From: Micavibrio sp. | GTDB taxonomy: Bacteria; Pseudomonadota; Alphaproteobacteria; Micavibrionales; Micavibrionaceae | DNA: 64,000 bases | NCBI GenBank assembly: GCA_044238965.1 | Contig: JBIICJ010000001.1 | Coordinates: forward strand, 2,089 to 66,088 | Direction: 5' to 3' | Shown: piece after piece, positions 1 to 48,778 of the stretch | How the letters are laid out: each line of letters starts with the position of its first letter | Numbering within the stretch: the stretch's first letter is position 1 | The notes under the pieces: generated by a model | The model's input: the letters and a program-made list of their open reading frames with translations, nothing else | Told to the model about the DNA's origin: nothing | Databases searched by the model: none | Position numbers and translations under genes: made by a program

Positions 1-969
1 TGTAGCTTTGTTGAGGCCATCGGCAACTTTGGGGGTCGCGCTAATATCGGCAAAGGCCAAATTACCATGATGCGCTGCAGTCAAAAGGCCGCCCAAACGA
101 CGGGCAATATCAACGCGGGACGGAATAAAACGACGCACGCCCAATGATGAGAATACCCTTGCCATTTCGCCCGATTCATCAGCATCCATCGCGGCAGGTA
201 AAACCAAAATCGGTTCAATATCTCCACTCGCAATTAATGATGATAATAATTTCATCTCACGTGGATCAAACGGGTTATATCCAGCGGCATCAATTAATAT
301 CTGATCGGTCTTTGGCAGTGATGTTAAAAGTTTTGTGATATCCATCGCGTTTTTCGCGCGGTGTAAATCAATCTTCAACAATTTTGTAAATGATTCTAAT
401 TGTTCAACACCGCCCGCGCGTATTGTGTCGGCGGTAATGACTGTTACGGTTTGTTCATTCATAATTAAACGTGCGGCTTGTTTTGCGGTCACCATGGTTT
501 TGCCTGCACCTGGCGGGCCCACAAACATAAACGCCTTTGTATGTGCGGTTTGCGGTAATGGGGCAAAATCAAACATATGATCAAATGCACCCATTAATGC
601 AATGCGCGCATCATCAACGGGCATCATTCCCGCATGTGATAAAATTTGATCAAGGATATCTTCAGGCACAGAATGTTTTAATAAACATTCGAGTAATGTT
701 TCAGAAAAATCGCTATCGGCTTTGTCTTCATCATCATATTGCAACCAATCATCGCGGTCTGATGGAGTGTGCGGTTCAAAATCAGATTCTTTTAAACGGG
801 AACGCGGCACAACAGGAACATACGTATCATCGAGGGCAGCGGTGACTTGCACAGATTTACCCGCAACATCTTCGCGTGTTGCGATGATGATGGCATCTTC
901 CCCTAAGGCATCTCGGACCATTTGCATGGCTTCGGTCATGGTTTTCGCATAGAACGACTTTAGTCGCAT
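1..969 (-). CDS. flhF: Flagellar biosynthesis GTPase FlhF (C-terminal end cut by window edge)
   Basis: Absent from the ORF track because it runs off the window. My minus-strand translation from the ATG at 969 reads MRLKSFYAKTMTEAMQMVRDALGEDAIIIATRE. Further in it reads MFVGPPGAGKTMVTAKQAAR, an SRP-type P-loop. It lies directly downstream of flhA. Confidence 0.8.
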   Translation of the reverse strand, partial: MRLKSFYAKTMTEAMQMVRDALGEDAIIIATREDVAGKSVQVTAALDDTYVPVVPRSRLKESDFEPHTPSDRDDWLQYDDEDKADSDFSETLLECLLKHSVPEDILDQILSHAGMMPVDDARIALMGAFDHMFDFAPLPQTAHTKAFMFVGPPGAGKTMVTAKQAARLIMNEQTVTVITADTIRAGGVEQLESFTKLLKIDLHRAKNAMDITKLLTSLPKTDQILIDAAGYNPFDPREMKLLSSLIASGDIEPILVLPAAMDADESGEMARVFSSLGVRRFIPSRVDIARRLGGLLTAAHHGNLAFADISATPKVADGLNKAT

Positions 970-1127
970 GGGTTTATCTTAATATGGGTGGGCAGGGAAA
1001 CCAGAAATCTGATTCGTTTTTAGTATAACCGAGACGGACTCGGCTGTCTTTGGAATTCTTAACAAAAGATTAAATTTTTAAAACTGTGACTCAAAATCCA
1101 CAGTATAAACCAAGATGATAGGCTTGG

Positions 1128-3224
1128 TTAAATCTGCCCCAGAGTCTTAATCCGCGCTGTGGGGTGGATTTCATTTTGTGACATCACAAAGGTTGACGGG
1201 CGGAAGCGTTCAATCACTGACCGTACATAAGGGCGGATGCCCGCCGAGGTCAACAGCACAGGGGATTCGCCCGTCTGGGCATAACGGTCATAGGTTTGGC
1301 GGACGAGTAAAATAAATTCCTGAAGCAAGCTTGGCGCCATGGCGAGTTGTTTATCTTCATGCCCAACCAAAGAATCAATAAACGCCTGTTCCCATTTGGA
1401 TGACAAGGTGAGTAACGCCACCTGACCATTGGCATTGAGGTTCGATTCACAAATTTGGCGCGCCAATCGCGCGCGCACATGTTCGGTAATCAGACCAATA
1501 TTTTTGGTATATGTAGTGGCCTCAGCAACGCCCTCTAAAATGGTGGGTAAATCGCGAATGGAAATACGTTCGGAAACCAAATTTTGCAACACGCGTTGCA
1601 GACCTGCATTCGTCATTTGTGATGGGATCACATCAGCAACAAGTTTTTGATATTCAGGCGGCAATTCATTCAATAAACGTTGGGTTTCGGTGTATGATAA
1701 TAAATCAGCCATATTATCTTTGATAATCTCAGTAATATGTGTTGTTACAACTGTGCCCGCATCGACAACTGTATATCCTTTGAAATGCGCTTCTTCGCGG
1801 TATCTCTCATCAATCCACATGGCTGGTAAACCAAATGTGGGTTCAACGGTTTGTTCGCCAGGCAAAGTAATCGCCTCACCTGATGGATCCATACACATTA
1901 ACATGCCTGTACGCACTTCACCGCGACCAGCTTCGATTTCTTTGATGCGAACAACATAATTATTGGCGGGTAACTGCAAATTATCCTGAATGCGCACGGC
2001 AGGTAAAATATAGCCCATATCTTCGGCGAGTTGGCGGCGCAGACCCTTAATCTGATCAGGTAAACGTATGGTGGTTTCTGATCCTTGCACCAATGGTAAT
2101 AATGCGTAACCCAATTCAAGGCGAATTGTATCCATCGCCAATGATTTTGAAATCGGCTCTTCGGCGGGTTTCGCGGCGGTGAGCAATTGTTGTTCTGATT
2201 CTTGTTTTTGATCTTCGATAATTTGATCGCGTGCAAATGATTGATACGCGATAAATCCAATAATGGCAGCTAATACGGCGAATGGCAGAATGGGCATGCC
2301 GGGAATTAATCCAAAACACAAAATCAGGCCCGATGAAATGGCGAGCGCACGAGGATAACGTGAAAATTGATCAATCAAGGCTTTGTCAGCAGATCCTTCA
2401 ACGCCCGCTTTTGACACTAACAAACCGGCGGCAACAGATATAACCAACGCAGGAATTTGCGATACCAAACCATCACCGATAGTCAGGGCTGTATATGTTT
2501 TGGCAGAATCGGCCATGCTCATATCATGGATAGCGGCACCAATAATAATGCCGCCGATTAAATTGATGAATGTAATTAATATACCCGCAATCGCATCACC
2601 GCGTACGAATTTCGCCGCACCATCCATCGCCCCGAAAAACGCACTTTCTTGTTGCAATTCCGATCGTTTTAATTTGGCCTCATCTTCGGTGATTAATCCT
2701 GATGACAAATCACTATCGATCGTCATTTGTTTCCCAGGCATCGCGTCCAAACTGAAACGCGCGGCAACTTCGGCAATACGCCCTGAACCTTTGGTAATCA
2801 CGATAAAATTCACGATGATCAAAATGGCAAATACAATTCCGCCCACCACATAATTATCACGGATCATAAATGTACCGAACGATTCAATAATATGTCCCGC
2901 CGCATCGGTTCCATTATTCCCTTCGGATAAAATCAATCGGGTTGATGCAATGTTTAATCCCAGACGCAATGCGGTGGTGATCAACAAAATAGTCGGGAAG
3001 GTTGAAAAATCTAATGGCCGGCGAATAAATAATGTGATCATCAAAATCATCATCGATAGGGCAATCGATAACGCTAAACCCATATCAACAACGATGGGCG
3101 GCATTGGCACCATCATGAACATCAAAATAATGACAACGCCGATTGCAAGCGCAAAGTCAGGGCGAAGGATCGACCCTAACATTGATTTTGTATTTGGCAT
3201 GTTGGTTGGCATTGATGGTGGCAT
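1128..3224 (-). CDS. flhA: Flagellar type III export apparatus protein FlhA
   Basis: 698 aa with an N-terminal polytopic membrane domain. Contains GAMDGAAKFVRGDAIAG, typical of the FlhA/FHIPEP family, and a large cytoplasmic C-domain. The exact start among several N-terminal Met codons is uncertain. Confidence 0.95.
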   Translation of the reverse strand: MPPSMPTNMPNTKSMLGSILRPDFALAIGVVIILMFMMVPMPPIVVDMGLALSIALSMMILMITLFIRRPLDFSTFPTILLITTALRLGLNIASTRLILSEGNNGTDAAGHIIESFGTFMIRDNYVVGGIVFAILIIVNFIVITKGSGRIAEVAARFSLDAMPGKQMTIDSDLSSGLITEDEAKLKRSELQQESAFFGAMDGAAKFVRGDAIAGILITFINLIGGIIIGAAIHDMSMADSAKTYTALTIGDGLVSQIPALVISVAAGLLVSKAGVEGSADKALIDQFSRYPRALAISSGLILCFGLIPGMPILPFAVLAAIIGFIAYQSFARDQIIEDQKQESEQQLLTAAKPAEEPISKSLAMDTIRLELGYALLPLVQGSETTIRLPDQIKGLRRQLAEDMGYILPAVRIQDNLQLPANNYVVRIKEIEAGRGEVRTGMLMCMDPSGEAITLPGEQTVEPTFGLPAMWIDERYREEAHFKGYTVVDAGTVVTTHITEIIKDNMADLLSYTETQRLLNELPPEYQKLVADVIPSQMTNAGLQRVLQNLVSERISIRDLPTILEGVAEATTYTKNIGLITEHVRARLARQICESNLNANGQVALLTLSSKWEQAFIDSLVGHEDKQLAMAPSLLQEFILLVRQTYDRYAQTGESPVLLTSAGIRPYVRSVIERFRPSTFVMSQNEIHPTARIKTLGQI

Positions 3225-3372
3225 GATTCGTAAAATTGTACCTGATACAATGGTTTAGGTCTATTCAATCAATAGTTTATAGTCAAACGCGTTAAAATTT
3301 ATAAAAAGTTGGACAGGCTTAACCAGAATTTGTATTATTCATAATTGTTAATTTCTACGCAGAGTAAAGCTT

Positions 3373-3738
3373 ATGGGTTCATTTCACCGTATTCGGTTAT
3401 CGGAATTTGATTCTACATCTTTGCGATTGGTTATTTTCGCGCGATCAAGCCCCGAATCTAGGCCAGTCACAATTTTTGCAGAAGATTATAATGGTAATTC
3501 GTGCCGTCCCATTTCTATATATGATTTGGGGTATGGTATAAATTCTGCGCGTACAAAAATTTTACTTGAAAATAAATATCCAAATGGTCGATTGCGCCGT
3601 GAGTGGGTGAAGTTGCAAGATTCAGTTGACGATCTTCGCCACATATTCAAATTAGTGGGGCAGGACATGCCGCCTGTGACACAATCATTTTTATCCCGCC
3701 TCGGGAACATCCAATCCTTCGTCGCGGTACTGCGATAA
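3373..3738 (+). CDS. Orphan hypothetical protein (121 aa), opposite strand to its neighbours
   Basis: It is the only plausible ORF in the 466-nt flbD-flhA gap. Amino-acid composition is ordinary. A possible sigma70 promoter lies upstream: TTGGAC (3309-3314), 18-nt spacer, TATTAT (3333-3338). There is no clear SD, its last 48 nt overlap the flbD 3' end, and I recognise no family. Confidence 0.25.
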   Translation: MGSFHRIRLSEFDSTSLRLVIFARSSPESRPVTIFAEDYNGNSCRPISIYDLGYGINSARTKILLENKYPNGRLRREWVKLQDSVDDLRHIFKLVGQDMPPVTQSFLSRLGNIQSFVAVLR

Positions 3739-5067
3739 TTTATTCCGCAATGTACGAATGGAAATACCCAAAATATTGGCGGCATGGGTGCGGTTACCCA
3801 AACAATGATCTAATGTGTTGATAATCATATCGCGTTCCACATCGGCAATGGTACGGCCAACCAATGTTTCGACTGCGCCCGCATTTTGCACGGGTGATGA
3901 CATTGACCCCGCGCTGGATACACCTTTGGGATCTGGCGCTTTGTGTGAAACGGGAACAGATGTTTGTGCCATACCCGCGATATAAACCGCATCGGCCTCA
4001 ATCTGATCTTGCATCGACACCAACACCGCGCGGTGCATGATATTTTCTAGCTCGCGAATATTACCCTTCCAATGATGGGCTTGAATTTTTTGTTTGGCTT
4101 CTTCGGAAATTTCTTTGCGCGCCACGCCATTTTGTTCGGCAAATTTATCAAGGAAGAATTTTGCCAGCGGTAAAATATCGGCAGGGCGTTCACGCAAACC
4201 AGGCAGGCGAATATTGACAACGTTTAAACGGAAATATAAATCTTCGCGGAACTCGCCCTTGGCAACAGAATCTTCTAAATTACGGTTTGATGTCGCAATA
4301 ATACGCACATCAATTTTCACAGGATCATTATTCCCAATACGGGTGATTTCACGCTCTTGAATCGCGCGCAATAATTTTGCCTGTAATGATGGGTGCATTT
4401 CGGATACTTCATCCAATAATAATGTCCCGCCCGTGGCTTCTTCAAATTTACCCAAACGACGTTGCACCGCGCCAGTGAACGCACCTTTTTCATGGCCGAA
4501 TAATTCAGATTCTAATAAATTTTCAGGAATGGCAGCGCAATTAAGAGCAATGAAGGGGCCATTGCCACGTTTTGATTTACGGTGAATATATTTTGACATC
4601 ACCTCTTTACCCGTTCCCGACTCGCCCGTGATTAAAATGGTGGCTTCAGATGGCGCAACTTTATCAGCAATAGCGACAACTGATTTCATCGATGGATCGC
4701 TCGCGATCATCGCGTTTGATTCTTCGGTGACGGCCTCTAAAATTCCTGCAATTAAATCCGCGTCTGGCGGCAGGGGAACATATTCTTTTGCGCCTTCTTG
4801 AATGGCTTTGACCGCCGCGCGCGCATCGGTGCCAATACCGCAGGCGATAACGGGCACATGAATGCGTTCAAGTTTTAACGCTTCGATAAAAAATCCAATT
4901 TTTTGTTTGATGTCGATCATAACTAGATCAGCACCTTTACCATTGCGCAGCGCGCCAAGGGCTTGTTCAGTATCTTCGCAATGAATAACTTTTGCGCCGC
5001 GTTGTAACGCGATTTTACCCGCCGCGGAAATGTAACCTTCCAATTGTCCAATAATCATGAGGCGCAT
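3691..5067 (-). CDS. flbD: Sigma54-dependent flagellar response regulator (FlbD-type)
   Basis: Receiver domain, then an AAA+ domain with GESGTGKE (Walker A) and ESELFGHEKGAFTGA (GAFTGA sigma54 contact loop). C-terminal Fis-type HTH GNRTHAANILGISIRTLRNKL. SD AAGGA lies 8 nt upstream, and the gene sits inside the flagellar operon. Confidence 0.85.
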   Translation of the reverse strand: MRLMIIGQLEGYISAAGKIALQRGAKVIHCEDTEQALGALRNGKGADLVMIDIKQKIGFFIEALKLERIHVPVIACGIGTDARAAVKAIQEGAKEYVPLPPDADLIAGILEAVTEESNAMIASDPSMKSVVAIADKVAPSEATILITGESGTGKEVMSKYIHRKSKRGNGPFIALNCAAIPENLLESELFGHEKGAFTGAVQRRLGKFEEATGGTLLLDEVSEMHPSLQAKLLRAIQEREITRIGNNDPVKIDVRIIATSNRNLEDSVAKGEFREDLYFRLNVVNIRLPGLRERPADILPLAKFFLDKFAEQNGVARKEISEEAKQKIQAHHWKGNIRELENIMHRAVLVSMQDQIEADAVYIAGMAQTSVPVSHKAPDPKGVSSAGSMSSPVQNAGAVETLVGRTIADVERDMIINTLDHCLGNRTHAANILGISIRTLRNKLSQYRDEGLDVPEAG

Positions 5068-5091
5068 AAAACGAATCCTTTTGTAAAAACT

Positions 5092-5958
5092 TTAGGTATT
5101 AAAATAGCGTATGCGGCGGCTTTCGGGAAGGAGGCTATTTAATAAGATTTCCAAACGGCGCGGATTTTCTTGGCGTGCCATCGATGCCGCACCGGTGATC
5201 ATTAATGTTTTTAATAATGTGTCTTCATTGGCATTGCGTTCGACCTTGGCGGCGAGAGGAGCGAGCACAACCGTGCCCATAATCGCGCCATAAAATGTAG
5301 TGAGCAACGCAACCGCCATGGCGGGGCCAATGGTTTCGGGTGAATTTAATTGGGATAACATTTGCACCAATCCGACCAATGTCCCGATCAACCCCATACC
5401 TGGTGCAATTTCGGATGCACGACGCAGAACGCTGGCGGCGGCTTTGTATTTGTCCATGGTGGTTTGAATTTCTTGCGATAAGAATGCTTCGATATCATTG
5501 GCTGAAAATCCGTCGGCAACTAATTGCATGGATTGTTTTAAAAATAAATCTTTGTTTAGCACACCATCATGTTGCGTGACAGATAATAATCCTTTTTTCT
5601 TGGCGATCACGGAAATGCCAACCAATGTTGTGGCATATTCAGAAAAATCAGGAACTAACCGCACAATTGATCCTTTGATGATGTTCATTGCTTCAACCAA
5701 TTCATCATGTGTGTATGACACGGCGGTCACCGCCAACGTGCCCAAAATGACAATCAAAACCGATGGTAAATTGAAAAAATTGGCTTTGCTTTGTCCCATC
5801 CAAACGGCGGCCACAATCAGCGCGATAGATACAACTAAGCCAATAATGGTTGTTTGATCAATTTCTTCGATCGGGTCAGATAATGTTAAAACAGGATCAG
5901 GCTGAACGCTTGGTTCGGGTGATGTCATTGATGGTGTTGTGAAAACAGGTTCAGCCAT
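5092..5958 (-). CDS. motA: Flagellar stator protein MotA (MotA/TolQ/ExbB family)
   Basis: 288 aa with four predicted TM segments. Contains GMGLIGTLVGLVQML and ALLTTFYGAIMG, typical of MotA/PomA. An N-terminal extension of about 35 aa is present. Confidence 0.85.
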   Translation of the reverse strand: MAEPVFTTPSMTSPEPSVQPDPVLTLSDPIEEIDQTTIIGLVVSIALIVAAVWMGQSKANFFNLPSVLIVILGTLAVTAVSYTHDELVEAMNIIKGSIVRLVPDFSEYATTLVGISVIAKKKGLLSVTQHDGVLNKDLFLKQSMQLVADGFSANDIEAFLSQEIQTTMDKYKAAASVLRRASEIAPGMGLIGTLVGLVQMLSQLNSPETIGPAMAVALLTTFYGAIMGTVVLAPLAAKVERNANEDTLLKTLMITGAASMARQENPRRLEILLNSLLPESRRIRYFNT

Positions 5959-5982
5959 TTGTATGTATCTTTATATATATAT

Positions 5983-6336
5983 TTAAGTTGATTGTTCTGA
6001 TTTCACGATTTCGGTCATGGTGATGCCCAAACGATCTTCGACCACCACAACTTCACCGCGCGCGACCAAACGATTATTCACATAGATGTCAATTGACTCA
6101 CCGACTTTGCGATCTAATTCAACAACCGCGCCACGACCTAATTTGAGTAATTGCGACACTTTCATATTTGATCGACCAAGCACCGCCGAAATTTGCACGG
6201 GAATATCATAAATGGCGGTCACATCATTCGCCATAGGTTCGCCCATCGCGTATGGATTATCATCATCACGGTTTGCGTTTGGGTCTTCAATTTCGGATAG
6301 GCTTAAATCCGCTTTACCGTCCATGGAATCTCCCAT
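5983..6336 (-). CDS. fliN: Flagellar motor switch protein FliN
   Basis: C-terminal SpoA-type motif VELDRKVGESIDIYVNNRLVARGEVVVVEDRLGITMTEIV. Confidence 0.9.
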   Translation of the reverse strand: MGDSMDGKADLSLSEIEDPNANRDDDNPYAMGEPMANDVTAIYDIPVQISAVLGRSNMKVSQLLKLGRGAVVELDRKVGESIDIYVNNRLVARGEVVVVEDRLGITMTEIVKSEQST

Positions 6337-6338
6337 GA

Positions 6339-7067
6339 CTATTCTCCTTCATTGGTCTTTGTTTCAGATTGTATCTGTTGTTCGTCATTGTGATCGTTTT
6401 CATTGTTTTGTGCAAGGGGTGTAGGGCCCATGACAGGCGCAGTATTTGGTTCATTCATGTCTATTTTTGGTTTCAACTGGCGTAAAATTTCGCGTGAGAT
6501 AGCATTATGATCGCGAATAGCGCCCCCATCTTTCCACAAAATACGGCAATTACCCGCTGATAAATTAGGATCGGCTTTGACGGTGATGATGCCTTTATTA
6601 TCCAGCTTAATTTGATCAACATAATTTTGAATATGTTCGGCATCATCCATTGGCACTTCGATTGAAATATGCGGCGCTGTAATTTCGCGTTTTAACACAT
6701 CGCGAATCATATCTTTGATTTCGGCGAGCGCATGTGAACGGGTAAGGGCAGGGAATAACGCCTGCATCGCGGATTCTGCCACTGATAACACTTCGCGTTC
6801 AAATTGTGCTTGGCGATATTGCTCTTGGTCAAATAATTGTCCGATTGATTGCGCAATCTCGTTCATCTGATGGGCAATATAATTACCGCGTGATATTTCG
6901 GCCTCGGCTAAACCTGCGCGGCGGCCTTCTTCAAATGACACTTCTTTGGCGTGGCCCAATTCATCCAATGAAAACATGGGCGGCGGTGGCGGCGCTTCAA
7001 CTTCGACTTCGACCATATCTGGTTCGTCAAATTTATTTAAATCGAAAAAATATTTACGCTCTTTCAC
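6339..7067 (-). CDS. fliH: FliH-like flagellar export protein (FlbE-type)
   Basis: 242 aa located between fliG and fliN. Has a Pro-rich linker followed by EEGRRAGLAEAE, a FliH-like helical region. GTG start with SAAGGA-type SD (AAGGA) 6 nt upstream. The assignment rests partly on gene position. Confidence 0.65.
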   Translation of the reverse strand: MKERKYFFDLNKFDEPDMVEVEVEAPPPPPMFSLDELGHAKEVSFEEGRRAGLAEAEISRGNYIAHQMNEIAQSIGQLFDQEQYRQAQFEREVLSVAESAMQALFPALTRSHALAEIKDMIRDVLKREITAPHISIEVPMDDAEHIQNYVDQIKLDNKGIITVKADPNLSAGNCRILWKDGGAIRDHNAISREILRQLKPKIDMNEPNTAPVMGPTPLAQNNENDHNDEQQIQSETKTNEGE

Positions 7068-7084
7068 TGATAATCCTTATACGA

Positions 7085-8107
7085 TTAGAAAATCATTTGA
7101 TCATCAGCATTATTACCTTTGCTGAGAATAATTTCACCGCGTGATTCTAAATCTTTCGCAACGTTAACAATATATTGTTGTGATTCTTCGACGTCTTTCA
7201 GGCGGATAGGACCCATGGCGGCCATATCTTCCTTCATAATTTTGGCCGCGCGTTCTGACATATTTGAGAAGAACAAATCTTTGAGAGCATCGGTCGCACC
7301 TTTGAGGGCGATTGGTAATTTGTCTTTGTCGGCGGCGCGAACGATGGTTTGAATCGATGTCGGGTCGAGTTTTGCCAAATCTTCAAAGGTGAACATAAGC
7401 GAGCGAATTTTTTCAGCAGAATCGGGTGCCGATTGTTCCAAATGCCCCATGATACGGCTTTCGGTTGCGCGTTCTAAATTGTTGAAAATTTCGGCCATTA
7501 ATTCATGTGAATCGCGGCGCGCGGTGCGGGCAAGGTTCGCCATAAATTCGACGCGCAATGTACGTTCAACGTCATCCAATACATCTTTTTGAATGGCCTC
7601 CATGCGCAACATGCGGTGAATGACTTCAATTGCAAAAGCATCAGGCAACATGGCTAAAACCCGCGCCGCATGTTCTGTTGAAATTTTGGATAACACAACG
7701 GCAACGGTTTGCGGATATTCTTTTTGTAAAAAATTGGCCAAGACTTCTTCGTTCACATTACCCAATTTTTCCCACATATTACGACCTGCGGGGCCGCGAA
7801 TTTCTTCCATGATGGAATTGATTTTGTCTTTGTTTAATCCGGCACGATTGAGCAATCGTTCGGTTGAATCCATCGTACCGATCAATGAATTGCTAGACGT
7901 CATTTGTTCAGCAAAATCAATAAATAAACGCTCCACAACGGTGGAATTAATTTTCCCTAAATTCGCCATGGTTTGTGAGATTTCCATGATCTCATCTTCG
8001 TTCATATGCTCAAAAATTTTCGACGTATGATCTTCGCCGAGCGAGAGCATAAAAATGGCCGTTTTTTCAGTGCCGGTCAGGGTGCGATAATCTTCACGTA
8101 CGCGCAT
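7085..8107 (-). CDS. fliG: Flagellar motor switch protein FliG
   Basis: 340 aa. Contains LTGTEKTAIFMLSLGED, FLQKEYPQTVAVVLS and MFTFEDL, which are FliG hallmarks. Confidence 0.95.
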   Translation of the reverse strand: MRVREDYRTLTGTEKTAIFMLSLGEDHTSKIFEHMNEDEIMEISQTMANLGKINSTVVERLFIDFAEQMTSSNSLIGTMDSTERLLNRAGLNKDKINSIMEEIRGPAGRNMWEKLGNVNEEVLANFLQKEYPQTVAVVLSKISTEHAARVLAMLPDAFAIEVIHRMLRMEAIQKDVLDDVERTLRVEFMANLARTARRDSHELMAEIFNNLERATESRIMGHLEQSAPDSAEKIRSLMFTFEDLAKLDPTSIQTIVRAADKDKLPIALKGATDALKDLFFSNMSERAAKIMKEDMAAMGPIRLKDVEESQQYIVNVAKDLESRGEIILSKGNNADDQMIF

Positions 8108-8124
8108 TGGTTATGGTCTCTTTT

Positions 8125-9792
8125 TTAATCTTCTTGTGTCATCCAATTACGAAGGACGGATACAGTTTCTTCAGGGTACGCAGAGATAATATCTTCAACT
8201 TTTTTGAGGGAGGATGCTTTGACGCGCCCTTCCACTTTTTGAACATCAATCATGCTTTCAACGGTTTCATCCATTTGCGCCATGTTGGCGGCGTAATTGG
8301 ATGGATCACCCATCGGGCCAGATAATTGGGCTTGGCCAGCTTGCATATTCGGTAACATATTGTGGCCATCATCTAATTCGTCTTCAGGAATTGGCGGCCC
8401 AGCGGTTGCAAGCAAACGCCCCACCATTGGTTGCAACACAAGCAACACAACAAGAACGATCATAATCGCAACTGTTAAAATTTCGGCTGTATCAAGTAAA
8501 TCTGATTTCTCAAATCCAAATAATTGAGTACCCGCATCATCTTCAACAGTTTGAATTTCAGCAAATTGCATATTGACTAATTCCAAATGATCGCCGCGTT
8601 CTTCATCAAATCCAATGGCAGAACTTACCAATGCTTTCATGCGGTCTAATTCTTCTTGGGTCCGTGGCTTATATGTGCGCACGCCTTTTTCATCCGTTGT
8701 GTATGTACCGTCAATTAATACAGCAACCGATAGTTTTTTTACTTCACCTGTTTCGCTGACGACATTGCGAACAACTTTGCTAATCTCAAAATTTGTCGTT
8801 TCTTCAGTGCGGTTATTTGAGCTGGTATTTCCTGATGCACCCGTTGCACCCGCATCTGCATTGGGTAAATTATTTTCAATTGATACATTGTTATCAGATG
8901 CCTGACTCTCGCTACCGCTTTCTTCTACGGTTTGCGCTGAACGTACCACTTGGCTCTGTGGATCATATGTTTCCGCGCTTTCAGTTACACGATCAAAATT
9001 TAAATTGGCGGTGACGGTGGCACGCACTTTACCAAACCCAACGGTACGACCCAATAAATCCTCAATCGTTTGGGTCATACGGCGTTCATAATCACGTGTC
9101 ATTTCCTCAGATTTGCCACTCATGACGCTATCTTCGTCTTCACCACCCTGCGCTAACAAATTACCTTGGGAATCGATGATCGATACATCTTTTGATTTCA
9201 TGTTGGGTACGGCCGATGCAATCAATGATTGTATGCCAGCGATTTGTTTGCGATCTAATTCGCCTGCGCCCTTCATTTGAATGAACACGGATGCCGATGC
9301 CGCACGATTTTCACGAGCAAATAATTCGCGCTGTGGTAATACCAAATGTACGCGCGCTGATTTAATCGGTTCTAATGATCCGATGGTACGGGATAATTCC
9401 CCTTCGAGGGCTCGAACCTGATTAATATTTTGTACAAAATTTGTTGTACCGAAACTTGATTGTTTATCAAAAATTTCATAACCCATATTACCGCCATTGG
9501 GCAATGATCCGGCTTGCGCCAATTCCATACGCGCTTTGCCGACATCTTTTTCGGACACCATAATTTTTGTACCGTCGGCGCTAAGGTCATATTGAATTTG
9601 TAATTCGTCTAATTTTGAGGTGATGGTAGTGGAATCTTGTGCGCTTAAATCATTATACAAGATTTTCATTTCGGGGCCGGCCACACGCATCGACACAAAC
9701 ACGAAAAAAAGCAACAGGCCTAAGAGGACGGCGCCCATAACTGCGAGCCGTGTGGGTCCTAATTTTTTTAATGTTTCGAGAAAACTATTCAT
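8125..9792 (-). CDS. fliF: Flagellar MS-ring protein FliF
   Basis: The ORF is open to 9915, but MNSFLETLKKLGPTRLAVMGAVLLGLLLFF (ATG at 9792) matches a normal FliF N-terminus with its TM segment. RVHLVLPQRELFARE is the YscJ/FliF motif, and there is a second TM near the C-terminus. Confidence 0.9.
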   Translation of the reverse strand: MNSFLETLKKLGPTRLAVMGAVLLGLLLFFVFVSMRVAGPEMKILYNDLSAQDSTTITSKLDELQIQYDLSADGTKIMVSEKDVGKARMELAQAGSLPNGGNMGYEIFDKQSSFGTTNFVQNINQVRALEGELSRTIGSLEPIKSARVHLVLPQRELFARENRAASASVFIQMKGAGELDRKQIAGIQSLIASAVPNMKSKDVSIIDSQGNLLAQGGEDEDSVMSGKSEEMTRDYERRMTQTIEDLLGRTVGFGKVRATVTANLNFDRVTESAETYDPQSQVVRSAQTVEESGSESQASDNNVSIENNLPNADAGATGASGNTSSNNRTEETTNFEISKVVRNVVSETGEVKKLSVAVLIDGTYTTDEKGVRTYKPRTQEELDRMKALVSSAIGFDEERGDHLELVNMQFAEIQTVEDDAGTQLFGFEKSDLLDTAEILTVAIMIVLVVLLVLQPMVGRLLATAGPPIPEDELDDGHNMLPNMQAGQAQLSGPMGDPSNYAANMAQMDETVESMIDVQKVEGRVKASSLKKVEDIISAYPEETVSVLRNWMTQED

Positions 9793-9963
9793 AAGTTCCC
9801 AGTCGTCTAGATGAGGTATTTGTTTTTCTTTATGCCTACATATGAGAGTATCATATATTAACGAATTTTTCCACAGACACTTGACGAAATAAAGTAATAA
9901 TTTGTCTAGATTCAAAGACTTAGCCGTATTATGGAATCGAGGGGCAAAAAATTTCTGAAATGG

Positions 9964-10000
9964 TTAACAAATAATTAAAAAATAATTAATACTTGGTTAA
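9964..10000. promoter_or_regulatory. Four TTAA half-sites at exact 11-bp phasing (three overlapping TTAA-N7-TTAA CtrA-box-like sites)
   Basis: The sequence reads TTAAcaaataaTTAAaaaataaTTAAtacttggTTAA, with TTAA starting at 9964, 9975, 9986 and 9997. It lies in the divergent fliF / flaG-like intergenic region. Confidence 0.45.
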
Positions 10001-10077
10001 TATATGCAACTAAGTAATCGATATTAGCAAATCATCATTTTCGAATCATAATTATTTGGTGAAATCAAGTAAAAAAC

Positions 10078-10106
10078 TTGACCTGCATGTAAATTCTTGT
10101 TACTAT
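10078..10106 (+). promoter_or_regulatory. Putative sigma70-type promoter for the flaG-like gene
   Basis: TTGACC (10078-10083), 17-nt spacer, TACTAT (10101-10106). This would give a leader of about 115 nt that contains a 9-bp hairpin (10118-10147). Confidence 0.4.
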
Positions 10107-10226
10107 GATAGTAGGGTAGTGCGTCCGAATTATATTTAGGGCGTACTTGGGAATAAAAACAATATAGGGAAACCGCTTTGAGGAGCCTTTGGGAAAAGGG
10201 GTGAACTCAATCGGGTGGGATAAAAA

Positions 10227-10706
10227 ATGATCGAAGCTGCTACTGCTTCTGTATCGAACTCACAAATCATCCGCAGCGCTGTGGAGCAATCCTCTTCGGC
10301 ACAAACAATTGCGGCAAATCCAACACGCATTCAAAAAGTGGCGGTATCTAACGCACCGTATTTGTCACCTTATGTTCGTTTAAGTCCTGGCACAAAACCA
10401 ATTTTGGTTGTGCGGGATTCTGACACGGGGACTCAGGTCAATCAATATCCAACGCCAGCACAAATTCGTGCATATCAGACTGCGGCATCAACACAAGCTA
10501 AAATATCAGCATCATCTGCTCCACAAGGGTCAGTGAGTGATGTAAAACAAGTATCATATGACGAAGCGAAGGCTGTGTTACAAAATTCAGTTCAATATCA
10601 AGAAATTAAAAAAGAAGTTGCGCGCTCGGCCTCATCAGAACCAGCGCCAGAGCCTGAACCACCACAACCAGCACCACAACCTATATCTGTGTCGGTTGAC
10701 GCGTAA
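10227..10706 (+). CDS. FlaG-like flagellar protein
   Basis: PILVVRDSDTGTQVNQYPTPAQIRAY resembles the FlaG core (v.v.D..TGevirqiP.e). The protein has a Ser/Ala-rich N-terminus and a Pro-rich tail, and it sits in a flagellar context. Confidence 0.5.
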   Translation: MIEAATASVSNSQIIRSAVEQSSSAQTIAANPTRIQKVAVSNAPYLSPYVRLSPGTKPILVVRDSDTGTQVNQYPTPAQIRAYQTAASTQAKISASSAPQGSVSDVKQVSYDEAKAVLQNSVQYQEIKKEVARSASSEPAPEPEPPQPAPQPISVSVDA

Positions 10707-12069
10707 TTCCATTTTCATTGTTATGTCGCAATTGTAATGCGCGTGCTGTTTGCGCGCGCAATTGGCCATTATGCAGATCAAGATAATAAGCATCAGGGCT
10801 TAGGTATGAAATATATTCACGAAATTTTGCAAATGTATCAGCTTTTTCATCATCGGGGAGTGCTGTAAACGAATTTCCTAATTTATAATGCAAACGAATG
10901 ATAACATGATCGGGAAATAATTTTTGTAAAATATGTGTTTGTAATTTTGTTGAACCATTGGGCTCATCACCATGACCCATTAATGACTCGCGATAATGGA
11001 ATTCCCCATCAAATTCGATGATCACGGGTTGGTTGCCGATAATATAATGCCCATCGACTTCACGCTGTAGACGGCCTACGTGATTGGTAATATTATCACG
11101 TTTTAAATTCGTTCTATCTTCACGCGTAAGGCCATATTCACGAAAATCACGCATAAATTTATATTCACTATGGGATGAATGATCAGAGTTGGCGTATTTA
11201 GTATCCATACTCTCAGTTTCAAGAAGAATGGCAGTCATATTAAATATCTGACTTAATTCAATATTATTTTTAGTATAAGGTTTTAAATCATCTAATAAAT
11301 AACAATATGAATTATATAGTGAGGCATTCATTTCAATACCGCCATCATGGGCAAATGCAAATTGCGCTGTTACTGACCATAGTAAGCTATTTCTATCTCT
11401 TGGAAATAATTTTTCTATATATAATGGATATATTTGTTTTAAAGGATCCATCAATTCTGTGTTCGCAATCGATAATCCCGCCCGTGAGATACTGTGAATT
11501 AAATAGATATACTTCACCAAATCGCGATGTGATTGAATCTCAATTTTCGGTATATTTTCTAGCAATTCATAAGGGGGCATTAATCGTAAGCCGCGATAGA
11601 CGCGCAAAAGATTATCTGTATCGTCTGGCGTTACGTCTTCTTTTAATATAAGTAATCGTTCTGATAAAATACGACGTATGTTGTTCGTTTCAAAAAGTGA
11701 TTGCCCTAAATATTGGGAATTGATGCTCAGAAAATCTAACGGCGCATTCGATAAAAAATCTTTGATATCTCTTTTGTGAGCATCCCAGAAATCTTCAAAT
11801 AATCCAGCATGTCTTTTTAATTTTGAGCTTTTGCTGCGTATGGCTTCGGATGCGCACAGCCATAAAAAACTAATCACACGAGGCGATGATGTGGCGGCCG
11901 ATAATGATGTCAGGTTGTCACATAATTGAGTGGGGTAGAAACCACTTTTGTCAGCGGCACTACACTTTAATAAAGAGGCGAGCTCATTATAGCGTAATGT
12001 GTCTAAATCTGCGCCACCATAAGGGGCGTCAACAGATGGCTGTTCTGGTTCTGGTTGAAACGCATTCAT
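10681..12069 (-). CDS. Hypothetical protein: helical N-terminal region plus C-terminal RAP / DUF559 (Vsr-like PD-(D/E)XK) type domain
   Basis: 462-aa ORF in visibly AT-rich DNA. The C-terminus reads REVDGHYIIGNQPVIIEFDGEFHYRE...GSTKLQTHILQKLFPDHVIIRLHY...DDEKADTFAKFREYI. The function call is by motif resemblance only. Confidence 0.6.
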   Translation of the reverse strand: MNAFQPEPEQPSVDAPYGGADLDTLRYNELASLLKCSAADKSGFYPTQLCDNLTSLSAATSSPRVISFLWLCASEAIRSKSSKLKRHAGLFEDFWDAHKRDIKDFLSNAPLDFLSINSQYLGQSLFETNNIRRILSERLLILKEDVTPDDTDNLLRVYRGLRLMPPYELLENIPKIEIQSHRDLVKYIYLIHSISRAGLSIANTELMDPLKQIYPLYIEKLFPRDRNSLLWSVTAQFAFAHDGGIEMNASLYNSYCYLLDDLKPYTKNNIELSQIFNMTAILLETESMDTKYANSDHSSHSEYKFMRDFREYGLTREDRTNLKRDNITNHVGRLQREVDGHYIIGNQPVIIEFDGEFHYRESLMGHGDEPNGSTKLQTHILQKLFPDHVIIRLHYKLGNSFTALPDDEKADTFAKFREYISYLSPDAYYLDLHNGQLRAQTARALQLRHNNENGITRQPTQI

Positions 12070-12327
12070 TTTTTAAACCTAACAATAAATAGACTTGTAT
12101 ATATCCAATAAAAGAGGGGGAACATTAGCACAAGCTTTAATATTATGTCAAAAGTTAACGGTGAGATCGCATACTTATATTATTCCCCTTGCCGCGCTCT
12201 TGTCATTCTGGGGTATGGGCTTTACAATTTCTTTAACTTTCTTCGTTCATGATCGCCATATTACATTAATAGGGTGCGATCCCTCGCACCTTCATTATCA
12301 TCATACTTTACTTTCAAGGATTTAGAC

Positions 12328-15000
12328 ATGACACGCGCTGGACACGATACGTTAAAAACACGCAAAACCCTTACCGTTGATGGGAAATCATATGATTATT
12401 TCTCAATTCCTGAGGCGGTGAAAACAATCGGCGATGTGTCACGACTTCCTTATTCTTTAAAAGTATTGCTTGAAAATCTTCTTCGTTTCGAAGATGGACG
12501 CTCGGTCACGGTTGACGATGTAAAGGCGATTAAGGCGTGGCTTGATAATAAAAAATCGGATCATGAAATTGCTTATCGTCCTGCGCGCGTGTTGATGCAA
12601 GATTTTACGGGCGTTCCTGCGGTGGTTGATTTGGCGGCGATGCGCGCCGCGATGAAATCATTGGGCGGTGATGCACAAAAAATTAATCCGCTAACGGCGG
12701 TTGATTTGGTCATCGACCATTCGGTGATGGTGGATGAATTTGGCACGCCTCAATCATTTCAAAAAAATGTTGATTTAGAATTTGAACGCAACGGCGAACG
12801 TTATGCTTTTTTGCGCTGGGGTCAAAATGCGTTTCGTAATTTCCGCGTTGTGCCACCAGGCACAGGCATTTGCCACCAAGTCAACGTTGAATATTTAGCG
12901 CAAACCGTATGGGTCGAGGAAGATGAAGATCGCAAAGGTGTCAACATTGCTTATCCCGATACATTGGTTGGAACAGATTCGCATACAACCATGGTGAATG
13001 GGTTGGGCGTTTTGGGTTGGGGTGTTGGCGGTATCGAAGCCGAGGCCGCGATGTTGGGGCAACCTGTATCGATGCTCATTCCCGAAGTGATTGGTTTTAA
13101 ACTCACGGGCAAAATGAAGGAAGGTAACACCGCAACCGATTTGGTGTTGACTGTTACGCAAATGCTTCGTGCCAAAGGCGTTGTAAACAAATTCGTTGAA
13201 TTTTATGGCGACGGTTTAGATCATTTATCATTGGCGGATCGTTCGACCATTGCCAATATGGCGCCTGAATATGGTGCGACATGTGGCTTCTTCCCGATTG
13301 ACGAAGAAACAATTCGTTACTTGAATTTCACAGGTCGTGATCCACATCGCGTGCGCATGGTTGAAGAATATGCCAAGGCACAAGGTATGTGGCGCGTCAA
13401 AGGTGCGGCGGATCCTGTATTCACCGATTCACTAGAATTAAATTTGAGTGATGTTGAACCATCACTCGCGGGGCCAAAACGTCCGCAAGATCGCGTGCCA
13501 TTATCAAAAGCAGTTGATTCCATCAAATCGATGGTACCAACCATTCGCGCGCAGGCGGTTGATGGCCATGATTATAAATTAGAGGATGGTGCCGTTGTCC
13601 TTGCGGCAATTACATCATGTACAAACACATCAAACCCATCTGTGTTGGTTGCGGCGGGATTGCTCGCACGTAATGCGGTCAAACGCGGTTTGAAAACCAA
13701 GCCATGGGTAAAAACATCACTCGCGCCTGGATCGCAAGTTGTAACCGATTATTTATTAAAAGCAGATCTACAAAAAGATTTGGATGCGCTCGGGTTTAAT
13801 CTTGTGGGTTATGGATGTACCACCTGTATCGGTAACTCTGGTCCATTGCCCGATCATATTTCAAAGGCGGTTGAGGCAGGCGATTTAACCGTTGCGGCTG
13901 TATTATCAGGTAACCGCAATTTCGAAGGGCGCGTGAACCCACAAACCAAAGCGAATTATCTGGCATCGCCGCCATTATGTGTGGCCTATGCTTTGGCGGG
14001 GAATATGCATGTGAATTTATTGACCGATTCGTTGGGCAATGATCAAAACGGCAATCCCGTTTATTTGAAAGATATCTGGCCATCAAACAAAGATATTTCT
14101 GACATGGTTGATCAATGTTTGACATCCGAAATGTTCAAATCGCGTTATGCCGATGTGTTCAAAGGCCCTGAACAATGGCAAAAAATTGGCGGCGCAGGCA
14201 AGTCAGAAACCTATGCATGGGATGATAAATCCACATACGTCAAAAATCCGCCTTATTTTGTCGGCATGACAAAAACACCGTCGGCTGTGTCAGATGTGAA
14301 AGACGCTAGTATCTTGGCATTGTTGGGTGATTCTATCACAACCGATCATATTTCACCCGCAGGTTCGATTAAAAAAGCATCGCCCGCAGGTGAATATTTA
14401 ATGAAACATAATGTGCCTGTGGCTGATTTTAATTCATACGGTGCGCGTCGTGGTAACCACGAAATTATGATGCGTGGTACATTCGCCAATATTCGCATTA
14501 AAAATGAAATGCTTGATGGTATCGAAGGCGGAATGACCAAACACGTGCCAACGGGTGAAACCATGCCAATTTATGATGCGGCGATGAAATATATCGATGC
14601 GGGTACGCCACTCGTTATTTTCGCGGGCAAAGAATATGGTACGGGTTCATCACGTGACTGGGCAGCCAAAGGCACGCGTTTATTGGGCGTGAAGGCTGTC
14701 ATCGCTGAATCGTTTGAACGGATTCATAGATCAAATCTTGTCGGTATGGGATTATTACCATTGCAATTCAAAGATGGCATGACACGTAAATCATTGAATC
14801 TAATCGGTGATGAAGTGATTTCGATCACAGGCGTTGAGGCAGGTATCACACCACGCATGGATGTCACATTAACGATCAAGCGTAGCAATGGCGCGGTTGA
14901 AAATCACGCGCTTATGTGCCGCATTGATACGCTCGATGAAGTTGATTATTTCAAGAATGGTGGGATCTTGCATTACGTCTTGCGCGATCTTGCCAGTTGA
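12328..15000 (+). CDS. acnA: Aconitate hydratase A
   Basis: 890 aa counted from the ATG at 12328, with SD AAGGA 7 nt upstream. Contains [34 protein letters not shown] and [10 protein letters not shown], which carry the Fe-S cluster ligands. Confidence 0.95.
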
Positions 15001-43568: not shown

Positions 43569-44036
43569 ATGACATCTGGGCAAGACATTAACATTAGACC
43601 AATTCAGAAATCTGATATTCTTTTAGTTAAAAAAATGATGGATGAATTGCATTTATTTCATGGTAAAATGATCAAAACATCCACAAAGCGGATTATAGAT
43701 GGTTGTTTCGAATCAAAATTAACACAGGGTTTTGTTGTTGAGCATAAGTCAAAGTGTATAGGGTTTAGTTTTGGCTATGATGTGATGAATTATATTCAGT
43801 CAGAGCGCTGTCATTTTATTGACTATTTTTTTATCAAGGAAAAATATAGATCAATCGGTTATGGGCAAGCATTATTGAATTATGTGATAACATCTGCACA
43901 AAAACGTGATTGTGGTTTGATATATGTGACGGCTTCAAAACACAATCAAGACGCTAATTCTTTTTATAAAAAATGTGGATTTAAACGACACATTTCGAAA
44001 TTAAATAAATATGTTTTAGAAATTCCACGTAATTAA
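43569..44036 (+). CDS. GNAT-family N-acetyltransferase
   Basis: 155 aa. IKEKYRSIGYGQALLNYV fits the acetyl-CoA binding motif A (R/Q-x-x-G-x-G/A), and ANSFYKKCGF lies near the C-terminus. The gene is AT-rich. Confidence 0.7.
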   Translation: MTSGQDINIRPIQKSDILLVKKMMDELHLFHGKMIKTSTKRIIDGCFESKLTQGFVVEHKSKCIGFSFGYDVMNYIQSERCHFIDYFFIKEKYRSIGYGQALLNYVITSAQKRDCGLIYVTASKHNQDANSFYKKCGFKRHISKLNKYVLEIPRN

Positions 44037-47433: not shown

Positions 47434-48084
47434 ATGGATGATTTAAAACCAAAGACAATTATTATCGCAGATGATCATATTTTATTTCGCGACACGTTAG
47501 TGATGTATTTGTGTGCAGCAAATCCGCATTTTAAAATAATTGTGGCTGGCGATTTTTCTGAGCTTTTTTCTATCCTACATCGTAAATCAGAAAAAATTGA
47601 TCTTATGCTAGTTGATTATTCAATGCCATCAATGATGAGTCGTGATGCATTTTTAAAATTAAACAAAGATTATAACCATATCCCGATCGCTATGATGTCA
47701 GGTGTCGCGGATTTGCAGGATATAGAATTTATCAGAAAGATTGGTATAAAAGGGTATATTCCCAAAACATTATCAGCATCAAAAGTGCTGGAAGGGATTG
47801 ATCGTCTTTTATCAGGAGAATCCTTTTATAATACAAACACGCATTTATTTTCACTTTATCATGATCAGAATAATAAAGAAAATTTTACGTCACGTGAGTG
47901 TGATGTTTTGGAATTATTGGCAACGGGAGTTCCAAATAAAGAGATCGCTAATGAATTAAATTTAAAGCCTGTTACTATAAAATTATATATTCGTAATATT
48001 CTTAGAAAATTAAATTTAAAAAATAGAACACAAATAGCATTATGGGTAAGTGGAGGTATAAAAAATGAAAAGAAATATTTTTAA
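47434..48084 (+). CDS. NarL/FixJ (LuxR-type HTH) response regulator
   Basis: The receiver has IIIADDH and DLMLVDYSMPSM. The C-terminal HTH reads TSRECDVLELLATGVPNKEIANELNLKPVTIKLYIRNILRKLNLKNRTQ. Confidence 0.85.
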   Translation: MDDLKPKTIIIADDHILFRDTLVMYLCAANPHFKIIVAGDFSELFSILHRKSEKIDLMLVDYSMPSMMSRDAFLKLNKDYNHIPIAMMSGVADLQDIEFIRKIGIKGYIPKTLSASKVLEGIDRLLSGESFYNTNTHLFSLYHDQNNKENFTSRECDVLELLATGVPNKEIANELNLKPVTIKLYIRNILRKLNLKNRTQIALWVSGGIKNEKKYF

Positions 48085-48736: not shown

Positions 48737-48778
48737 ATATCTTTTCTATTTAAGAATGATGAATTAATATAATTTGTC

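Follow-up and report, generated by a model that had tools for sequence, protein, structure and literature searches.

A probable bacterial counterpart of the organellar helical-repeat RAP proteins, encoded beside acnA in Micavibrio-like Alphaproteobacteria

Introduction

Helical-repeat proteins that carry a RAP domain, namely those of the FASTK, HPR and OPR kind, have a central part in the processing of mitochondrial and plastid RNA, and where they come from is unclear. RNAs of organelles are bound by RAP and HPR proteins (PMC8190603; PMC6212722), FASTKD5 acts as an RNA endonuclease in vitro and needs a conserved Asp to do so (PMC12242768), and in FASTKD4 the FAST_2 and RAP regions together form a Vsr-like pocket (PMC11879112). 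As for bacteria, one study that sampled three eubacterial genomes reports that it detected no HPR proteins there (PMC6212722), and RAP is rare in prokaryotes, the candidates being isolated InterPro entries that went undetected by the authors' own hmmscan (PMC8190603). Here I describe a 462-aa protein encoded next to the aconitase gene acnA in a 64,000-nucleotide stretch of Micavibrio sp. DNA (contig JBIICJ010000001.1, positions 2,089 to 66,088; the window in what follows), in which a helical-repeat region is joined to a C-terminal RAP-like domain, and which is probably homologous to the RAP proteins with HPR/OPR-type repeats.

My reading, to which I would give a probability of about 60%, is that this is a bacterial protein of the FASTK/HPR/OPR-RAP type, probably a repeat-guided RNA endonuclease or processing factor, and not a flagellar protein. 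If FASTKD5 and other RAP proteins are a guide, the repeat solenoid would bind single-stranded RNA in a sequence-dependent way and the RAP-like domain would then cleave the bound RNA or hold it; that the substrate is RNA and that catalysis takes place I infer from analogies of this sort, and any tie of the function to acnA is likewise an inference. The gene had been pointed out in a prediction made from the DNA letters alone (the original prediction), whose open reading frame (ORF) and quoted C-terminal sequence match the translation exactly, and an identical 462-aa protein is present among public gene calls on other contigs.

The RAP-like domain and its family

Pfam RAP (PF08373) is the sole Pfam match of the window protein, which scores 15.2 bits when taken whole and 17.3-17.4 bits when cut to C-terminal fragments, against a gathering cutoff of 24.2 bits, and the orthologue P0002 scores 21.8 bits at full length and 25.3 bits, which is over the cutoff, as an isolated domain. 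RAP is matched by 11 of 15 family domains (E<1), and no other Pfam family is found in more than one member. The RAP signature has been given as Np-Np-Np-Ac-Np-Ac-G-P-x-H-F (Hollin et al., 2021; PMC8190603), and the signature block of the window protein (Table 1) fits 9 of the 10 specified positions, the mismatch being an E in place of the P, and the conservative change from F to Y being counted as a fit. The same block reads IIIEADGPSHF in relatives, and the 12 relatives that came from the profile search described below carry R.VD...(I/V)IE.DGP.HF...NG.T.LQ..L...P...V.R.

Overall identity within the family is low, about 15-25%, and 15-21% to the window protein in the set of 18 units named below, despite the fixed motif residues, of which D339, E352, D354, G355, H358, G372 and R392 are invariant over 15 C-terminal domains, and D339, D354, G355, H358, G372 and S299 are invariant over 18 units once tandem paralogues are included, with E302, E352, W70, P165 and F309 at least 90% conserved over the same 18. 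The acidic/His constellation of E302, D339, E352, D354 and H358, plus R392, is thereby retained, and an invariant D/E/D/H set in a family of such low identity suggests that catalysis may have been retained too. The order of motif elements that the original prediction had picked out falls on these same columns, and the acidic residues, whose conservation it had proposed to check, and the His are invariant or at least 90% conserved over the 18 sequences.

Within the domain, a helix (S299..E302) is followed by a strand (V338-D339), a second strand (I351-E352-F-D354-G355..H358), a helix (T374-L384) and a third strand (V389-R392), after which a pair of helices, a beta-hairpin and one more helix close the domain. 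The order of the S299/E302 helix and the V338-D339 strand is that of DUF559/Vsr-type nucleases, and a conserved strand Asp with an acidic/His cluster on the next strand, the feature looked for in Vsr/DUF559 enzymes, is present. Judged from motif order, D339 and the acidic/His cluster could be the equivalents of D51/H69 in Vsr, and D339 may likewise correspond to the putative active-site Asp of FASTK proteins.

An AlphaFold2 (AF2) model of aa 306-450, built from a 15-sequence alignment, has a mean predicted local distance difference test score (pLDDT) of 91.7 and a predicted template modelling score of 0.86, and in the numbering of this C-terminal alignment (A2) it begins with a pair of helices, goes on through strands 34-38 and 41-47, a small hairpin, helix 66-78 and strand 83-87, and ends in the two helices, beta-hairpin and last helix already named. 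Its best PDB match in Foldseek is 6rd4_2, which is Polytomella ASA2 (E=0.2, probability 0.72, TM 0.39), and further down the same list are arenavirus cap-snatching endonucleases, which are PD-(D/E)XK enzymes; the BFVD list is dominated by endonucleases, with group I intron endonuclease, DNA mismatch (Vsr-type) endonuclease, CoiA, restriction enzymes, DUF2726, VRR-NUC and DUF559 among them. ASA2 (6rd6_2, residues 322-445) is, together with 6z1p_AS, one of the two experimental RAP-domain templates of Hollin et al. (PMC8190603). At the level of sequence the RAP assignment of the C-terminal domain is largely supported, and the structural matches are weakly consistent with a Vsr-like PD-(D/E)XK fold, short of significance; of the joint RAP and Vsr/DUF559 reading in the original prediction, the RAP part stands, with the sole Pfam match and the signature block behind it, and the Vsr/DUF559 part comes down to a weak structural link.

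Might the substrate be DNA instead? A Vsr/DUF559-type endonuclease serving repair, restriction-like defence or homing, its helices binding DNA or protein, would have the S..E / VD / IE.DG..H order that is established for DUF559/Vsr (PMC11879112), and it would agree with the BFVD matches to DNA mismatch endonuclease, DUF559, restriction enzymes and intron endonucleases, weak as they are, with sub-threshold PD-(D/E)XK matches among relatives (CoiA_nuc, 17.6 bits; DUF559, 13.2 bits in P0015), and with a fast evolution that is also typical of defence genes. I nevertheless doubt it strongly: the Pfam match that recurs is RAP and not DUF559 or Vsr, neither of which matches the window protein at E<=10, PADLOC at E<=1 recognises neither the window protein nor P0002, the N-terminal repeats are like those of the RNA-binding RESC6 and FASTKD4 (see below), and the locus is fixed beside acnA with no defence-island or mobile context.

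The family itself is small. A word-indexed protein search returned only the window protein itself and one 480-aa homologue, P0002, at 43-45% identity, and alignment-based repeats of that search gave 1 and 3 matches; an exhaustive HMMER run with a two-sequence profile against 1.84 billion representative proteins added 12 more at E<=1e-3 (14 in total), whose alignments lie chiefly in the C-terminal ~110 residues and for several of them take in the helical region from about aa 125 as well. A profile made from 16 relatives, leaving out the window protein and P0002, matches aa 123-437 of the window protein at 119.7 bits, and an N-terminal-only profile of the same leave-out kind matches aa 123-297 at 17 bits (per-sequence E=1.5e-7). 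A first scan of genome contigs found no relatives, a scan of metagenome contigs found only spurious 22-aa matches on GC-rich contigs, which fail the family hidden Markov model, and NCBIfam with the window protein, a PDB sequence search with the single protein and Rfam with the whole window gave nothing relevant. As far as seen, the family is restricted to Micavibrio-like alphaproteobacterial metagenome-assembled genomes (MAGs), and the protein is not the orphan that the original prediction had taken it for: in related MAGs of Alphaproteobacteria its relatives hold the same place beside acnA, often as tandem duplicates.

The helical-repeat region

Ahead of the RAP-like domain the window protein is predicted to form an alpha-solenoid of degenerate helical hairpins, copies of which read NLLRVYRGLRLMPPYELL, LIHSISRAGLSIANTEL and NSLLWSVTAQFAF, and a full-length AF2 model from two sequences is all-helical over aa 20-330, with pLDDT 70-88 over aa 100-270. 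Tandem helical-hairpin repeats are clear in the relatives, where they carry the motif (D/E)l..xLW(A/S)xAKLG(I/V)xP...F and have periods of 36 aa (P0008), 38 aa (P0003, P0006 and P0007) or 40 aa (P0009), to be read beside the HPR repeat of 37 aa and the OPR repeat of 38-40 aa, both of them two-helix units with a hydrophobic/Ala-Leu-Gly core; the OPR motif PPPEW was not found in the window protein. FAST_1 (PF06743) matches P0006 at 27.4 bits and P0007 at 28.6 bits, at or above the 27.4 cutoff, and is sub-threshold in P0003, P0008, P0009 and P0013. FAST_2 (PF08368) has no match among the ~25 family sequences scanned, and the region equivalent to it (the S299/E302 helix and the D339 strand) is present structurally.

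A family profile of 18 sequences (alignment A5), run against all PDB sequences, finds trypanosome RESC6, which is annotated as "RAP domain-containing protein" (E=1.3e-14), RESC8 (4.2e-6), the human FASTKD4 crystal construct 9gek_A (3.7e-4), mitoribosomal mL115, mL123, mL104, mL101 and mL116, and several Toxoplasma "RAP domain-containing proteins"; the RAP or helical-repeat organellar kind makes up 17 of the 26 matches. When the full-length model is put through Foldseek, the top 12 matches are all organellar helical-repeat proteins aligned over about 450 columns, at least seven of them RAP-domain proteins by their molecule names or by Hollin et al., examples being a chain of the T. gondii mitoribosome (9i05_Xr, E=9.4e-4 over 453 columns) and RESC6 (8fni_6, E=1.1e-3), with Polytomella mL116, Tetrahymena mL104 and ASA2 as further matches and target lengths of 440-475 aa. 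The all-helical model, the 36-40-aa repeats of the family and the matches to RESC6 and FASTKD4 bear out the idea, already contained in the original prediction, of a helical-repeat region placed before a RAP module.

Several results pull the other way and have to be weighed here. The window protein lies under the RAP gathering score and is not a RAP member by threshold; it has no FAST_1 or FAST_2 match, and P0002 is likewise without FAST_1, so that of the FAST profiles to which the original prediction had pointed only FAST_1 is reached, at threshold, and in P0006 and P0007 only. The full-length AF2 model is of low confidence (mean pLDDT 53.7), with the C-terminal domain below 50 in this two-sequence version. 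For the separate C-terminal model, Foldseek gives no significant match (E is 0.2 at best in PDB and 0.035 at best in BFVD), the top 50 matches listed include neither Vsr (1VSR) nor I-Bth0305I (3R3P), and PDB profile searches with A2 and with A1, the alignment of the window protein and its orthologue, found no RAP or nuclease chain. Positions 165-233 of the family profile also match, at E=1e-8, the unrelated-looking Helicobacter pylori HP0242, a small knotted helical protein, and E-values on helical repeats are for that reason not fully trustworthy. The HP0242 match is either chance helix similarity or an unrecognised relationship. Lastly, the RAP fold of FASTKD4 is catalytically inert (PMC11879112).

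Because the window protein and P0002 alone match nothing in PDB, the link of the repeats to FASTK/RAP proteins is a transitive one that runs through the family. Because it stays under the Pfam thresholds (RAP at 15-17 against 24.2; no FAST_1 or FAST_2), the protein is classed as a bacterial variant and not as a member of the FASTK family.

A conserved place beside acnA

The conserved unit is acnA together with one to three divergent RAP-like genes. Divergent adjacency to acnA is seen in 8 of 9 informative loci (the window, L001, L020, L004, L005, L008, L011 and L019), where the acnA comparison covers L001, L004, L005, L008, L011, L019 and L020 and uses Pfam Aconitase on their gene calls (Table 1). 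Tandem duplications beside acnA give two to three domains per locus in four of these, P0003, P0006 and P0007 each consist of two complete repeat-plus-RAP units fused into ~800-880 aa, and the genes downstream of the RAP-like genes vary between loci.

Table 1. Features of the window, and loci of relatives with a RAP-like gene (L, locus; P, RAP-like protein; positions of loci are those of the tandem duplication beside acnA; AcnA percentages in the locus rows are identities to the AcnA of the window).
Feature or locus	Position	Strand	Remarks
159-aa ORF, convergent neighbour	10227..10706	+	Shares 26 nt (10681-10706) with the RAP-like gene
Gene for FASTK-like helical-repeat and RAP-like protein	10681..12069	-	462 aa, ATG start, from the ORF list
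RAP-like / Vsr-DUF559-like alpha/beta domain, predicted	10720..11184	-	aa 296-450; AF2 model, invariant columns, Pfam RAP
RAP signature block VIIEFDGEFHY	10993..11025	-	aa 349-359; translation against consensus
V338-D339, preceding strand	11053..11058	-	D339 invariant in 18/18
All-helical alpha-solenoid, predicted	11185..11934	-	aa 46-295; degenerate ~36-38-aa helical-hairpin repeats
Acidic, Pro/Gln-rich, poorly conserved N-terminus	11935..12069	-	aa 1-45; pLDDT 29-53; unaligned or variable in alignments A1 and A5
Divergent intergenic region shared with acnA	12070..12327	.	Holds elements for both genes
TTGACA box, RAP-like gene	12145-12150	-	Kept in window, L001 and L020; ~75 nt upstream of start codon
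acnA promoter-like TTGTCA-17-TACAAT	12200-12228	+	
35-nt conserved block GCTTTACAATTTCTTTAACTTTCTTCGTTCATGAT	12219-12253	+	Identical in L001, mostly kept in L020; includes predicted -10 TACAAT
Leader hairpin GGUGCGA-UCCC-UCGCACC	12274-12291	+	~37 nt ahead of acnA ATG
acnA (aconitase A), divergent neighbour	12328..15000	+	78-94% identical to the aconitases beside relatives' RAP-like genes
L001/L002, close relative			acnA(-), P0002(+), 161-aa gene(-), fliF; flaF/flbT/flgI beyond acnA as in window; AcnA 93.7%
L020/L021, close relative			acnA(-), P0014(+), 161-aa gene(-); AcnA 93-94%
L004, MAG "Pseudomonadota bacterium"	6440-10643		acnA(-), 486-aa paralogue, P0003 (880 aa, two RAP-like domains); AcnA ~80%
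L005, MAG "Micavibrio sp."	8001-10491		acnA(-), P0004, 406-aa paralogue, response regulator, GAF-PAS kinase; AcnA ~81%
L008, MAG "Micavibrio aeruginosavorus"	5046-7569		acnA(-), 433-aa and 417-aa paralogues; AcnA ~80%
L011, metagenome contig			acnA(-, partial), P0006; AcnA ~78%
L019, metagenome contig	567-3551		acnA(-, partial), P0013, 183-aa gene, 399-aa paralogue; AcnA ~79%
L023, metagenome contig cut on acnA side			P0007, downstream genes as in L005
L018, metagenome contig, G+C 0.59			P0009 between Fe-S biogenesis gene and HD-domain gene; no acnA

In the window, the distant flanks of the gene are flagellar, fliF/fliG/fliH/fliN/motA lying to one side and flaF/flbT/flgI to the other. It is from these flanks that a flagellar structural or regulatory role might be suspected, but they are specific to the window's close relatives, and in more distant relatives the acnA/RAP-like pair has non-flagellar genes around it, one of them Elm1-like and others coding for a response regulator and for a GAF-PAS kinase. 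The RAP-like gene is moreover monocistronic, having a convergent gene downstream and a divergent gene upstream, and the original prediction was right that it resembles no flagellar family, Pfam and NCBIfam scans yielding RAP as the sole Pfam match and nothing relevant from NCBIfam. A flagellar function, which I find hardly credible, is rejected on the ground that the synteny is with acnA and not with flagellar genes. NCBI places Micavibrio in Bdellovibrionota; however, flbT, flaF and fliX, which occur in the window and in L001, are typical of flagellar regulation in Alphaproteobacteria, and on that ground I speak of the host, with its placement tentative, as a Micavibrio-like alphaproteobacterium.

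Genes matching Pfam Mito_fiss_Elm1 lie near the acnA/RAP-like pair in L005 (995-1933) and L004 (1690-2688); Elm1 is named after a mitochondrial fission protein and is another family with a eukaryote-associated name.

The original prediction had also proposed horizontal acquisition on the strength of AT-richness and of the mostly eukaryotic occurrence of RAP proteins, and its hand counts of G+C (13/60, 13/60 and 29/60) are all exact. The AT-richness is real, if modest in size: the gene has a G+C of 0.372, the 7th lowest among 60 genes that average 0.426 (sd 0.040), its G+C at third codon positions is 0.292 against 0.374 (sd 0.062), and the ORF falls within the lowest 4.7% of equal-sized windows. 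Genes of still lower G+C include a GNAT acetyltransferase, a LuxR-type response regulator, a short PAS-HisKA kinase fragment and a CCA-adding/poly(A) polymerase-like enzyme, and since these lowest-G+C genes are ordinary, low G+C is an unreliable sign of foreign origin here. The genes of lowest G+C in the window (0.30-0.36) lie at 43569-44036 and 47434-49954.

Among relatives, the G+C of the RAP-like genes follows that of the host, being 0.37-0.41 where the genome has 0.41-0.44, 0.47-0.53 where it has 0.48-0.50, and 0.59 where it too has 0.59, and it is always slightly below that of acnA; such tracking of the host genome argues for long residence rather than recent import. Homologues hold the same acnA slot in genomes where AcnA is only 78-81% identical, and the RAP-like gene therefore predates the split of these genomes. 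A recent acquisition from a eukaryote, inserted into the flagellar cluster, would suit a gene that is AT-richer than most of its neighbours and whose architecture is otherwise reported only from eukaryotes (PMC6212722), RAP being rare in prokaryotes (PMC8190603). Against it stand the shared slot, the host-like composition (from 0.37 to 0.59) and the ordinary nature of the window's low-G+C genes, and also the search result that of the 14 proteins found all with usable context sit on bacterial-looking contigs. I regard this origin as very improbable, and recent eukaryote-to-bacterium transfer is rejected for the conserved locus and the ameliorated G+C. The observations argue for an old resident at a fixed locus; the original prediction had named conservation of position in relatives, with normal composition, as what would speak against import, and in spirit this is what is found, with acnA and not the flagellar genes as the conserved partner.

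The 159-aa convergent neighbour overlaps the RAP-like gene by 26 nt, as had been stated, and its earlier name, "flaG-like", is without support, this Pro/Ala/Ser-rich protein having no Pfam match at E<=10. It too diverges quickly, with 76% identity in L001 and 49% in L020, despite an AcnA of ~94% there, and was not found at the equivalent spot in L004, L005, L008 and L019; the gene is conserved only in the closest relatives, outside the family-wide unit.

On the other side, the longest acnA ORF opens at GTG 12274, alignment with relatives favours ATG 12328, which has AAGGA ahead of it, and the latter is most likely the true start. In the shared intergenic region, the TTGACA box looks like a sigma-70-like -35 box and is a candidate for a promoter belonging to the RAP-like gene itself. 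The position of the acnA leader hairpin is kept in L001 and L020, with a different stem in L020 (AGGGGC...GCCCCU), folding z-scores of the 95-nt leader in the window, L001 and L020 set are -3.4, -1.8 and -1.0, and the hairpin could be a regulatory element of the aconitase mRNA.

Rapid divergence at a fixed position

Although it stays in place, the RAP-like gene changes quickly. Compared with the window protein, P0002 has 34% identity over the N-terminal part and 58% over the C-terminal one, and P0014 has 23% overall (20% N-terminal, 29% C-terminal), whereas neighbours in the same slot are conserved, with AcnA at 93.7-94.3% and FliF at ~95%. A neighbour-joining tree of the C-terminal domains has several paralogue classes, and because P0014 branches apart from the pair of window protein and P0002, the divergence may partly reflect the retention of different tandem paralogues. 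On either account the family is multi-copy and fast-evolving, with the catalytic-looking residues fixed and the repeat region freely changing, and, given that the aconitase gene next to it is 94% identical, one has to ask which target changes so quickly.

A secreted effector or toxin would give one answer, that is, a repeat-guided nuclease sent into bacterial prey or into a eukaryotic host, where mitochondria could be the destination, with repeats that track their targets in an arms race. Micavibrio is by one account a genus of epibiotic predators (PMC3189940), the relatives are MAGs labelled Micavibrio, and the extreme divergence at a fixed slot (42.5% for P0002 and 23% for P0014), the tandem duplications among relatives and an architecture that is otherwise organellar would all be in keeping with such a role. 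Yet neither a secretion signal nor a chaperone, immunity or secretion-system gene accompanies it from locus to locus, the downstream neighbours varying as described, and the position beside a housekeeping gene is stable and without mobile-element features. Moreover, on inspection only, the acidic N-terminus (aa 1-45) has no obvious signal peptide and is unlike a mitochondrial presequence, and the low identities may stem in part from the paralogues just mentioned. Searches of the literature turned up nothing that connects Micavibrio, or effectors of bacteria, with RAP or FASTK. An effector is in my view unlikely, and I keep to the reading of a resident RNA-acting protein of the FASTK/HPR/OPR-RAP type.

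Comparison with known systems

What is new in this family is that it is alphaproteobacterial, that it has the whole architecture together with an intact catalytic-looking constellation, and that it occupies a fixed chromosomal address. It thus bears on the possible bacterial roots of the organellar RAP families, and it offers a genetically tractable setting in which the role of the RAP fold and the choice of RNA by the repeats can be approached. One could go further and propose that this bacterial lineage is the stock from which organellar FASTK/HPR-RAP proteins came (possibly via the mitochondrial ancestor), or that the two sides are joined by a very ancient exchange, although the architecture has so far been regarded as a eukaryotic invention for organelles. 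In bacteria the family would then be a rapidly re-targetable, repeat-guided RNA endonuclease, and its steady pairing with acnA would hint at post-transcriptional control of the acnA mRNA with its conserved leader hairpin, but this is a speculation that I would call decidedly unlikely as a whole.

Set against small nucleases, the protein has the element order of Vsr, DUF559 and I-Bth0305I, with the helix Glu, the strand Asp and the (I/V)E.DG..H strand, along with weak structural matches, but no significant sequence or fold match connects them to the window protein. Enzymes of this type are small, act on DNA and stand alone, with no helical-repeat region attached.

The HPR/OPR-RAP proteins (those of apicomplexan mitoribosomes, RESC6/RESC8, ciliate mL104 and ASA2) share with it a variable solenoid followed by a C-terminal RAP domain, the signature block and a similar length of ~440-475 aa, and the ASA2 template is the best fold match of the C-terminal domain. 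Unlike them, the window protein is bacterial, its gene lying on a bacterial contig with bacterial genes around it, has no organelle-targeting peptide, scores below threshold for RAP and is linked to acnA; it also has a longer insert (beta-hairpin, aa 358-370) between the GxxH block and the next helix, and, over aa 395-450, a helix, a beta-hairpin and a further helix added at the C-terminal end.

With the human FASTK family (FASTK and FASTKD1-5), the likeness lies in the FAST_1 score of relatives, the profile match to FASTKD4 and the conserved Asp module, and the differences are the absence of FAST_2 from every member scanned and of FAST_1 from the window protein, and a very low identity. Whereas FASTKD4 has lost catalysis, the bacterial family keeps its acidic and His residues invariant.

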